Made by a program: the position numbers and the translations under genes. A stretch of 64,000 nt of DNA from IMG/VR virus record IMGVR_UViG_2529292906_000009, positions 3,303-67,302 of that record; one strand, given 5' to 3'. The stretch is from a virus (Duplodnaviria > Heunggongvirae > Uroviricota > Caudoviricetes). Under the pieces are notes generated by a model. The model did no database searches and was not told the DNA's origin. It saw only the letters and a program-made list of their open reading frames with translations. This document shows, piece by piece, positions 25,083 through 26,359 of this stretch. How positions within the stretch are numbered: position 1 is the stretch's first letter; every line of letters starts with the position of its first letter.

Positions 25083-26057
25083 TTATCCGTTACCGCACGA
25101 CGGTTTCTGCGTGATAAACGTCTCAAGCATCTTTTCCGCAATTGCCGACCAGGTGTGACACTGGACCTTTTCAGCATTTTTCACGCGATCAACGCGAGCA
25201 ATAACCTCATCCCAATCAATCCGCGACTTGATAACCATATGGTTCACCAAAGCCAGGCGATCTGGCGGAAGGCAATCGGGAGGCGTTAATACCAACGCCC
25301 CGCACATTGCCGCCTCAAGTACAGTTAATCCAAGGCTTTCGGGATGCGTAACGATAAAAACGTCACTCTTACGCAATTCAGCTGCAAATTCGGTTGCTGG
25401 CACCGGCGTCCGCCTGTATGGAGTTACCGAAATATTCCCCGGATCAATGGTAACCAATCCGTCATCAGTCAACGTTCTGGCCTCATACGGAACGGTCAGA
25501 CGCTGAAGGTTCATAAGGATACTTAAGGAGTGATCAAAACCACTAACATCAAATGCAGCGTGGTCTACAAAAATACGCAGAACATCGTCCGTTTTGGTTT
25601 CCAGATGGAACAGCTCCTGATTCGCTGCCCATCCAACATGTTTGTTAAAGCGATTATGACGTTCTAACCGACCGGGATTATCCAGGTACCGCCAGGTATC
25701 ATCGCGGACAGTAAAAGTAATATCGACTGGTGCCGAATCCAGCATAGAACCGTCATATACCTGGGCTACCCATCCAGAGAATCGGCGACACAGTTGCATG
25801 CCTATTTCCCTGGGTACCGTAGTAAAATACCTCAATCCTGGTGCCAAAATGGCCTTCGCAGAACATGCTGTCGCAGCAGTCAACACAGCTTCAACATAAT
25901 CCTCGGGGCTTTCGACGCCAGGGGAATATGGACGATGGTATTGCAATGTTACCCCAGCCTCACTAAAGGCGCAGGCCAGGTTGTAAGCCCACATTTCCGT
26001 ATATGTTTTCACATCACTGATAGCTTCAAATTTTCGCCCAATGATCAGGATGTTCAT
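25083..26057 (-). CDS. GT-B fold glycosyltransferase (GT1/GT4-like), 324 aa
   Basis: C-terminal ESLGLTVLEAAMCGALVL resembles the GT4 donor-binding motif. Confidence 0.55.
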   Translation of the reverse strand: MNILIIGRKFEAISDVKTYTEMWAYNLACAFSEAGVTLQYHRPYSPGVESPEDYVEAVLTAATACSAKAILAPGLRYFTTVPREIGMQLCRRFSGWVAQVYDGSMLDSAPVDITFTVRDDTWRYLDNPGRLERHNRFNKHVGWAANQELFHLETKTDDVLRIFVDHAAFDVSGFDHSLSILMNLQRLTVPYEARTLTDDGLVTIDPGNISVTPYRRTPVPATEFAAELRKSDVFIVTHPESLGLTVLEAAMCGALVLTPPDCLPPDRLALVNHMVIKSRIDWDEVIARVDRVKNAEKVQCHTWSAIAEKMLETFITQKPSCGNG

Positions 26058-26359
26058 TGCGTCTCCTTTTCCCTGACTAAAAGCTCATCCAGCTTGCTTT
26101 TATGTTTGAGCACATAGCCACATATTTTTCCTTTGGAGCTAATTTGCGGAATGGAATAATATTCCGAAAATACTAATTCAGCCTTTTCTAAGACAAGTGA
26201 AACACCATAGCGCGCAACATGTCTGTCGATCATTTTTGCATCACTGAGATTACCTTTAATTGATAGCCAGTCGTTGAGGTACATATGGTTGCGATTGGCT
26301 TTTTTCAGCATGTCGCTCAACCAATTTTTATTACGCTTAGTTAGTTTCCGTTGCATCAA
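26054..26359 (-). CDS. Hypothetical protein, 101 aa (downstream of ban)
   Basis: ORF in track; overlaps ban stop. Confidence 0.45.
   Translation of the reverse strand: MMQRKLTKRNKNWLSDMLKKANRNHMYLNDWLSIKGNLSDAKMIDRHVARYGVSLVLEKAELVFSEYYSIPQISSKGKICGYVLKHKSKLDELLVREKETQ

Follow-up and report, generated by a model that had tools for sequence, protein, structure and literature searches.

Phages P1 and P7 carry the closest described counterparts of the gene analysed here, dbn, which was found in a stretch of DNA of 64,000 nucleotides from a member of the Caudoviricetes (IMG/VR record IMGVR_UViG_2529292906_000009, positions 3,303 to 67,302; the whole stretch is called the window below). P1 dbn and P7 glt are the same gene as the one in the window, 98-99% identical in nucleotide and protein sequence (98.9-99.3% for nucleotides), and they share its surroundings, with ban upstream, the convergent baseplate gene 5 downstream and the same terminator region. 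P1 Dbn differs by an annotated N-terminal addition of 8 residues (MQWNEEKP), which resembles a remnant of orf100, the small open reading frame (ORF) that lies between ban and dbn in the window and that P1 lacks at this place; P7 Glt differs by a stop at codon 23. The gene flagged in the window is therefore the already annotated P1 dbn (gp078, YP_006544), and hence is not new.

Among characterized enzymes, Dbn resembles the retaining glycosyltransferases (GTs) of family GT4, such as PimB', BshA, GlgM, sucrose-phosphate synthase and the WaaG type, in its GT-B fold, its C-terminal EX7E motif and the lack of a metal motif. It differs from them in length (324 aa, compared to 350-450 aa), in having N-terminal invariant residues of its own, and in a sequence likeness that is limited to the EX7E region. 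In bacteria, genes for MptE-like and Dbn-like proteins show the same adjacency as in phages, and the two are fused once in a single protein, as in two-domain capsule polymerases. Unlike the phage, the bacterial capsule loci also code for export (KpsMTED), linker enzymes (KpsC/S) and the synthesis of CMP-activated 3-deoxy-D-manno-octulosonic acid (CMP-Kdo), whereas the phage module adds to the bacterial pair a GT8-like enzyme (PmgQ) and a second MptE-like paralog.

Three kinds of phage system invite comparison. Gtr systems, and the clusters for lipopolysaccharide (LPS) or capsule in jumbo phages and cyanophages, are phage-borne glycan-modifying genes that are thought to block superinfection. 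Gtr systems consist of membrane proteins, namely a flippase, a bactoprenol GT2 enzyme and a periplasmic GT-C enzyme; in contrast to such integral-membrane components, Dbn, PmgO, PmgP and PmgQ have no predicted membrane segments. The DNA glycosyltransferases of phages (T4 alpha- and beta-GT, and the HY126-type 5-hydroxycytosine arabinosyltransferase, Protein Data Bank (PDB) entry 9ir0) share with Dbn the GT-B fold and phage origin, a generic likeness. In mycobacteriophages, virion glycosylation by phage-encoded enzymes is established (Freeman et al. 2023, as cited in PMC12619734), the enzymes being cytoplasmic GTs that decorate capsid and tail-tube proteins. That system works in another host, the likeness of P1 to it lies solely in gene position in other phages, and no glycan has been reported on the P1 virion.

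A four-gene module shared by unrelated phages

The main new result of this study is that Dbn forms one conserved module with PmgO, PmgP and PmgQ, as seen from gene linkage and domain fusion. The names pmgO, pmgP, ppp and pmgQ were given to genes of the window by comparison with the P1 record. A preliminary description of the window, made from its letters alone, had counted four glycosyltransferase-like ORFs in the element and grouped them. Profile hidden Markov models (HMMs) of the three families, run against all ORFs of the window, return exactly four such ORFs and no further copy, so that the count stands. The grouping is much strengthened, as three unrelated phages have the homologs side by side and one protein unites part of the set by fusion.

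In a P2-like phage (L010/L011) the order of genes is scaffold, terminase, portal, PmgO-like, PmgP-like, Dbn-like (47% identity) and PmgQ-like, the last four ORFs overlapping one another; the cassette is followed by a KAP NTPase gene and then by a replication gene. The isolated 111-kb coliphage EP_H11 (L184, OP688485) possesses the full cassette at 4900-7589, PmgO/P-PmgO/P-Dbn-PmgQ, in the same order as the P2-like phage, and a further phage contig (L172) shows the order PmgP-Dbn-PmgQ-PmgO. Five large-phage contigs of up to 281 kb (L003, L005/L095, L007, L093 and L094) contain a Dbn homolog (31-33% identity) directly followed by a PmgQ homolog, in clusters that also code for a cytidylyltransferase-cupin protein and a methyltransferase and, in some cases, for a polysaccharide pyruvyl transferase and extra GT-like genes. 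In P1-like plasmids of the Citrobacter type, Dbn is found about 5 kb from PmgO-PmgP-PmgQ. Finally, in the 522-aa protein P0231 a PmgO/P-like domain (E=1e-36) is naturally fused to a Dbn domain (E=4e-95).

Since this linkage recurs in other phages, the conserved partners of Dbn are PmgO, PmgP and PmgQ and not Ban, its neighbour in the window. Domain fusion, together with linkage across at least five phage lineages, argues against mere co-mobility of the genes. By the same comparisons, the split arrangement of P1 looks derived.

Some of these loci show additional features. The KAP-family NTPase adjoining the P2-like cassette is a protein of 1354 aa (L010, 7644-11708), situated between portal and replication genes, an interval that we take to be the known P2-like hotspot for accessory and defence genes; a literature search for glycosyltransferases in P2 hotspots found nothing. 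The annotated genes of the EP_H11 cassette are all hypothetical, and one PmgO/P-like ORF (5400-6035) carries no annotation. Phage IME392 has a similar Dbn (47% identity). Glycan clusters of 6-10 genes surround the Dbn homolog in large metagenomic phages (L003, 5190-11153; L005, 5136-11130; L007, 6524-11170; L097, 5009-13224). The cytidylyltransferase-cupin and methyltransferase genes occur in the first three of these, the pyruvyl transferase in L003 and L005, and weak GT8- and GT47-like genes in L003; the L097 cluster has one gene each for an epimerase and an FkbM methyltransferase, and two each of the GT2-like and GT1-like kinds.

Fold and motif of Dbn

The AlphaFold2 model of Dbn (predicted local distance difference test, pLDDT, 94.5; predicted template modelling score, pTM, 0.90) alternates strands and helices in two halves, and the modelled fold is GT-B, with two Rossmann-like domains, closest to GT4 enzymes. 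A Foldseek comparison of the model with the PDB gave 104 matches with E<=1e-3, the top 50 of which are almost all GT-B glycosyltransferases, with two UDP-GlcNAc 2-epimerases of the same fold. The best matches are mostly GT4 enzymes, i.e., sucrose-phosphate synthase (6kih), GlgM (6tvp), PimB' (3oka) and BshA (3mbo), with template modelling (TM) scores of 0.6-0.67; taken overall, the GT4-type matches, which include glycosyltransferases of serine-rich repeat proteins (SRRP) and LPS enzymes, have TM scores of 0.55-0.67 and identities of 10-14%.

The donor motif, H238-P-E240-S-x-G-x-x-x-L-E248, is an EX7E motif and is invariant across 59 homologs, with H238, E240, S241, G243 and E248 as the invariant residues of the C-terminal half. 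Its stretch aligns with the motif of the Actinobacillus minor glucosyltransferase 8xsg. The N-terminal half has invariants specific to the family (D102, W143-A144, D165-H166 and D175). The 324-aa GT-B protein with a GT4-like donor motif that had been described at the outset is thus borne out by the model, the Foldseek matches and the invariant EX7E. A profile search for its GT family gave a divided answer: Pfam Glycos_transf_1 (PF00534) matches residues 221-307 with E=1.5e-5, yet the 25.1 bits fall under the gathering score of 26.4, and NCBIfam gave no significant family for the protein. Dbn is GT4-like by motif and fold, and its formal membership of GT4 is borderline. When 1.84 billion representatives are searched with the profile of the Dbn family, only 426 clusters (50% identity) are found at E<=1e-3, and the family is therefore small and distinct, with no spread into generic GT4; against PDB sequences the same profile gives a single match, confined to the EX7E stretch.

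Domain variants are evident within the family. Nine members (P0302, P0307, P0309, P0314, P0317, P0319, P0322, P0324 and P0334) measure ~520-555 aa, and many Dbn-family proteins are extended at the C-terminus by a conserved stretch of ~190 aa that Pfam does not match and that may be a glycan-binding domain. Among others (P0283, P0269), one is fused to a SAM methyltransferase and one contains a tandem-duplicated Dbn domain.

The preliminary description had also hinted at glycan or DNA modification. Linkage within the module agrees with the former, and modification of DNA by Dbn is unlikely. In such a scheme Dbn, alone or with the other three proteins, would place sugars on the bases of phage DNA and so evade restriction, and we consider it highly improbable. 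The GT-B fold is common to phage DNA glycosyltransferases, dbn lies inside an operon with a replication gene, and the jumbo-phage cluster is near RecA-like and helicase genes. The arabinosyltransferase of phage HY126 (9ir0; PMC13326640) is match 5 in the Foldseek list, but its likeness to Dbn (TM 0.59, 12% identity) is no better than that of many GT4 enzymes, and neither the alpha- nor the beta-glucosyltransferase of T4 reaches the first 50 places of the list. The partners of Dbn, MptE/WaaZ-like and GT8-like, and its cellular relatives point instead to glycan assembly. Relatives are found in capsule loci and in capsid or neck operons. No pathway for base hydroxylation or sugar activation accompanies Dbn; in none of the loci examined does a gene for a base hydroxylase or hydroxymethylase lie beside its homologs, the window itself not having been scanned for one. 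To our knowledge, P1 encodes no such enzyme, and neither a hydroxylated nor a hydroxymethylated base is available in its DNA for glycosylation. Ordinary restriction enzymes cut P1 DNA, which is protected by the Dar proteins and methylation.

PmgO, PmgP and PmgQ

PmgO and PmgP give weak matches to the Pfam family MptE-like/DUF115 (PF01973), with E=5e-5 and 23.6 bits for PmgO and E=3e-4 and 21.0 bits for PmgP, the cut-off being 34.6. A profile of eight PmgO/P homologs was aligned by hhalign with MptE-like proteins of bacterial capsule loci at 96.4% probability (E=1.4e-9, 182 columns). One bacterial protein of this set clears the Pfam cut-off (47.1 bits), and its precomputed annotation adds WaaZ_KDO_III; in E. 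coli, WaaZ attaches the third Kdo of the inner core of LPS (PMC6358824). When the sequences of PmgO and PmgP were compared with PDB chains, nothing significant was found. The two paralogs could act as a heterodimer. As listed, their ORFs overlap by 103 nucleotides (18485-18587), and the true start of pmgP may be further downstream.

Across 49 homologs of PmgQ, D79-L-D81 is invariant and at least 90% have H208. Its profile matches structures of GT8 enzymes (Gat1, E=2.8e-7; glycogenin, 3e-5; GlyE, 7.5e-5), and the top Foldseek matches of its model (pLDDT 95.2) are Gat1, glycogenin, LgtC, GlyE and WbbM. Pfam has no match for the protein. As modelled, PmgQ has a GT8-like GT-A fold, and its sequence contains a DxD motif followed downstream by the conserved His.

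Kyte-Doolittle hydropathy over 19 residues peaks at 1.25-1.53 in Dbn, PmgO, PmgP and PmgQ, and the level conventionally taken for a transmembrane segment is about 1.6. All four are therefore predicted to be soluble and would act within the cytoplasm or on the inner surface of the membrane.

In P1-like elements of the Citrobacter type (L102, 3266-5069) pmgO, pmgP and pmgQ are contiguous and ppp, which in the P1 lineage lies between pmgP and pmgQ, is absent. Either ppp was inserted into the module in the P1 lineage or it was lost in the other; insertion is probably the case. A second phosphatase gene of the window, the orthologue of P1 pap (14446-14952, minus strand), is annotated as a putative acid phosphatase and matches the HAD-type phosphatase domain of polynucleotide kinase-phosphatase (PNKP; E=3.6e-11) and not a classical acid phosphatase. 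The possibility that Pap acts on lipids, and so hints at a target in the envelope, was considered and rejected, since a HAD/PNKP-type phosphatase is uninformative in this respect.

Proposed function of the module

Our best explanation as a whole, to which we attach an even degree of belief, is that Dbn is a member of a four-enzyme glycan-building module, that it is unlinked to Ban in function, and that the acceptor is best guessed to be on the virion. Dbn would be a soluble, cytoplasmic, retaining enzyme of the GT4 type, presumably moving a hexose or N-acetylhexosamine from a host nucleotide-sugar. PmgO and PmgP, being MptE/WaaZ/Maf-like, probably transfer a CMP-activated ulosonic acid such as Kdo, and PmgQ would act as a GT8-like, DxD metal-dependent retaining transferase. 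In P1-like elements dbn would be a physically displaced member of the module, the four genes lying in two units under C1 or late control; lytic development would turn all four on at once, and a short mixed glycan would be assembled in the cytoplasm.

The closest non-phage homologs of Dbn (52%, 40% and 34% identity) are encoded directly after an MptE-like/WaaZ_KDO_III gene and a gene for a conserved 319-aa protein. Two of these three bacterial loci are capsule loci of the kps type. One (L174) contains genes for a KpsM/T-type ABC transporter and a KpsD-like Poly_export protein, and the other (L173) contains genes for KpsT, a KpsF-like protein (SIS+CBS), a KdsA-like (Kdo-8-phosphate-synthase-like) protein and a CMP-Kdo synthetase. 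The third (L177), on a short contig, has the same triad and a hexapeptide acyltransferase. The kps loci of E. coli have a related region 2, in which the Dbn gene is absent. These bacterial relatives point to a Kdo-containing glycan and suggest that the MptE-like/Dbn pair descends from an enzyme pair of the capsule-polymerase type.

For the acceptor, we slightly favour a virion protein, a tentative choice held at somewhat less than even confidence. Several gene positions speak for it. In a T7-like contig (L180) the order is capsid, PmgO/P-like, FkbM methyltransferase, PmgQ-like and tail(-tube) genes. One HK97-like siphovirus has PmgQ-like and MptE-like genes between two Mtd_N proteins and the head-closure gene, and in another the connector and head-closure genes enclose a Dbn-like gene and a methyltransferase gene; the methyltransferases that often accompany the module members in these siphoviruses are of the FkbM type. 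The pmgL-pmgQ operon of P1 has a late promoter and stands among morphogenesis genes, and the P2-like cassette follows the portal gene. In addition, the top viral structural match of Dbn is a giant-virus glycosyltransferase (TM 0.80-0.82).

The module might instead remodel the host envelope, its substrate on the cytoplasmic side of the inner membrane being lipid A-core, as for WaaZ, WaaG and WaaO/WaaR, or a capsule-type glycolipid; we regard this as a close second, if on the unlikely side. WaaG belongs to GT4 and WaaO/WaaR to GT8, the families that Dbn and PmgQ resemble. The surface glycan of an infected or derepressed cell would then be altered, and other phages, or the progeny of P1, a phage that binds the LPS core, would no longer adsorb. 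The position of the nearest bacterial relatives of Dbn in Kdo-capsule loci, beside MptE-like/WaaZ_KDO_III genes, fits such a role, as do the structures from LPS and lipooligosaccharide (LOS) pathways among the fold matches (5n80/5n7z for Dbn, LgtC for PmgQ) and the place of the P2-like cassette between portal and replication genes, beside the KAP NTPase. Addition of the third Kdo by WaaZ leads to glycoforms with a truncated outer core (PMC6358824), and phage GT clusters with cupin and nucleotidyltransferase genes, a type into which the Dbn and PmgQ clusters of jumbo phages fit, have been interpreted as altering capsule or LPS so as to prevent superinfection (PMC7824862). On the other hand, no export or flippase component is present, and the module members of T7-like and HK97-like phages lie in the middle of capsid and neck gene blocks.

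Regulation also bears on the choice between envelope and virion. In the P1 record both loci have C1 operators and pmgL-pmgQ has a late promoter as well, and C1 operator matches were found in the window; dbn and the pmg genes are thus expected to be on in lytic growth. The genes accordingly appear repressed in the prophage, and little time would be left before lysis for new LPS to replace the receptor, which tells against envelope remodelling. With a C1 operator or a late promoter governing each locus, little is probably to be learned from profiling the LPS of lysogens. We know of no report of an LPS change in P1 lysogens.

Another cytoplasmic acceptor, which we hold to be improbable, would be a host protein or small molecule, e.g., a defence factor or signal; alternatively, Dbn would act alone on an unrelated substrate and the linkage would reflect co-mobility. 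The predicted solubility of all four proteins suits this, as do the accessory-gene positions in the P2-like phage and EP_H11 and the fact that the genes are non-essential in laboratory K-12, which is typical of counter-defence genes. However, four transferases, recurrent sugar methyltransferases and the sugar-nucleotide genes of jumbo phages imply the building of an oligosaccharide and not one inactivating transfer, and co-mobility is countered by the fusion and linkage described above.

Several observations weigh against virion glycosylation by a four-gene module. The closest bacterial relatives of Dbn are in capsule loci, which argues for a lipid-linked acceptor over a protein. In jumbo phages the cluster is near replication and recombination genes, not structural genes, and genes inserted in structural operons can equally be morons. 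In P1, dbn belongs to the early, C1-controlled ban operon and the other three genes to a late operon, and the stop at codon 23 of P7 glt implies that dbn can be lost. The Pfam scores of Dbn, PmgO and PmgP are under the gathering thresholds. With regard to dispensability, the glycosyltransferases of mycobacteriophages are reportedly not required for plaque formation. Counting against all of the readings, knock-down of dbn, pmgO, pmgP or pmgQ left plating on K-12 unaffected (PMC10695390), and the same paper cites a deletion study (PMC9024508) for the non-essentiality of these genes; in the latter, 24 of 29 single-gene P1 knockouts had no plaquing or antirestriction defect. Its account of the P1 virion proteome contains no word beginning with 'glycosyl', glycans not having been sought there.

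In its most specific form, virion glycosylation would mean that a module derived from a capsule polymerase, and shared by P1, P2-like, 111-kb coliphage, T7-like, HK97-like and jumbo phages, builds a Kdo-containing glycan on virion proteins from host CMP-Kdo and UDP-sugars. We consider this full version unlikely and offer it as a conjecture.

Identity and conservation of dbn

The whole window is a P1-like phage-plasmid. Its segment 24900-26500 is 97-99% identical to P1, P7, RCS47, SJ46 and further Punavirus records, and dbn is flanked by the P1 gene set: one flank holds genes 5, 6 and 24 (baseplate and tail), the other ban, a tRNA gene and tciABC (TerB-like). The protein is 98% identical over 324 aa to P0001, the representative of a cluster of 2431 members named 'glycosyltransferase family 4 protein', and matches phrog_2518, the orthologous group of P1 Dbn, with E=2.4e-233; PHROG 2518 has no functional name. 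The P1 record (NC_005856.1) annotates dbn as of unknown function, possibly a glycosyltransferase. P7 has the ortholog under the name glt, and RefSeq RCS47 lists it as "glycosyltransferase family 4 protein". Neither NCBIfam, PADLOC nor PHROGs supplied a functional name for Dbn or orf100, no family among the PADLOC defence-system models matches either, and a literature search found no paper that assigns a function to dbn, pmgO, pmgP or pmgQ.

The gene is real and maintained under purifying selection. The ratio of non-synonymous to synonymous substitution rates (dN/dS) is 0.30 in comparison with P1 and 0.13 with P7, and the 53 distinct dbn alleles from P1-like loci of IMG/VR show 934 synonymous and 290 non-synonymous differences, no allele having an internal stop. 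It is present in 471 plasmids of PLSDB. Scans of IMG/VR with three different Dbn alignments returned nearly exclusively P1-like loci, and a scan of GTDB species representatives returned three loci.

In the alignment of 59 homologs, the Dbn of the window begins at the family-consensus Met (MNILIIG). In P7 (L002, AF503408; locus 3184-4158) the stop is at residue 23 (TEM*AY), and glt is for this reason annotated as a shorter protein of 287 aa; the stop is either a natural knockout or a sequencing error.

The probable ban-orf100-dbn transcription unit

The features discussed are collected in Table 1. The interval 25083-26359, which the preliminary description had given to the glycosyltransferase, does contain the 324-aa ORF, but orf100 occupies the rest of it. 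The claim that dbn follows ban in the same operon holds insofar as both probably belong to the same transcription unit; orf100 intervenes, and the link with the helicase is incidental.

Table 1. Features of the dbn and pmg loci in the window
Feature	Coordinates	Strand	Remarks
pmgQ, 233-aa GT8-like GT-A glycosyltransferase (modelled)	16589..17290	-	module member
ppp, lambda-type metallophosphoesterase	17287..17979	-	between pmgP and pmgQ in P1 lineage
pmgP, 208-aa PmgO paralog	17961..18587	-	module member
pmgO, 220-aa MptE/WaaZ/Maf-like putative CMP-ulosonic-acid transferase	18485..19147	-	module member
GC-rich hairpin flanked by A and T runs	25036..25062		between convergent dbn and gene 5 (baseplate hub)
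dbn, 324-aa predicted soluble GT4-like GT-B glycosyltransferase	25083..26057	-	ATG start; ortholog of P1 Dbn/P7 Glt; EX7E at E240, E248
orf100, 100-aa basic ORF (pI 9.8)	26054..26356	-	between ban and dbn; 101 aa if TTG at 26359 is used
ban, DnaB-like replicative helicase	26356..27726	-	upstream neighbour of dbn, probably same transcription unit; not a functional partner
Overlapping pair of C1-repressor operator matches	30528..30555		upstream of the tRNA-tciABC-tRNA-ban-orf100-dbn string

The ATG of orf100 shares one base with the ban stop (TGATG), its own stop overlaps the ATG of dbn (ATGA), and a terminator scan found no terminator-like site between ban and dbn; from these overlaps and the lack of an intervening terminator, co-transcription of ban, orf100 and dbn is plausible. 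The hairpin that follows dbn (-17.6 kcal/mol, z=-4.7), missed by the consensus terminator scan and found by separate folding, is likely a bidirectional terminator that ends the ban-dbn transcript. The C1 operator pair is the presumed control point of the operon, an assignment that we take from general P1 knowledge. In addition, the P1 record predicts sigma-70 promoters for dbn within ban. A tRNA gene upstream of ban (28007-28082, minus strand) is called tRNA Met (anticodon CAT) by ARAGORN, and its orthologue in the P1 record is tRNA-Ile2 (ileX-like, lysidine-dependent).

The orf100 segment proper (26058-26345, 288 bp) has 38.9% GC, compared to about 48.5% in ban and dbn. It is absent from P1, where 13 bp stand in its place. 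The first two and last few codons of orf100 resemble the 8-codon extension annotated on P1 Dbn, which suggests that P1 carries a deletion remnant of orf100. Among the dbn-bearing PLSDB plasmids 52 of 471 have orf100, as do 11 of 80 P1-like loci in IMG/VR. Apart from copies at least 99% identical, its homologs have only 34-38% identity and come from lytic coliphages and Cronobacter phage JK004. In the latter phage, too, the homolog is located immediately behind a Ban ortholog (83% identical), its start overlapping the stop of that gene, and orf100 may thus be a helicase-associated gene that P1 has lost. It is probably outside the glycosyl module. An ORF of the orf100 type is also present in L183 (2501-2791), as in the window at 26054-26356 (minus strand), and the corresponding PHROG 12809 has no assigned function.

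A functional link between Dbn and Ban was considered and rejected, because their adjacency is not conserved: a P1-like plasmid of the Citrobacter type has Dbn and no DnaB match on record within 6 kb upstream. From the loci compared, we take the ban-dbn linkage to be specific to the P1/P7 lineage and incidental.

Implications for P1 and related phages

P1 is among the phages most used in bacterial genetics, and P1-like phage-plasmids are common carriers of resistance genes. In itself dbn is an ordinary, already annotated accessory gene; the linkage of the module is a testable lead. It brings four separate unknown genes, dbn, pmgO, pmgP and pmgQ, under one hypothesis, and deletion mutants with which to test it already exist. 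If LPS or capsule-type lipids are remodelled, the module would bear on receptor masking and on competition between phages. If its product decorates virions, it would bear on phage stability, immune recognition and the design of phage therapy. Should a Kdo glycan indeed be carried by the virion, P1 would be the first of the classical Gram-negative model phages whose virion is glycosylated, and four long-standing unknowns would gain a function.

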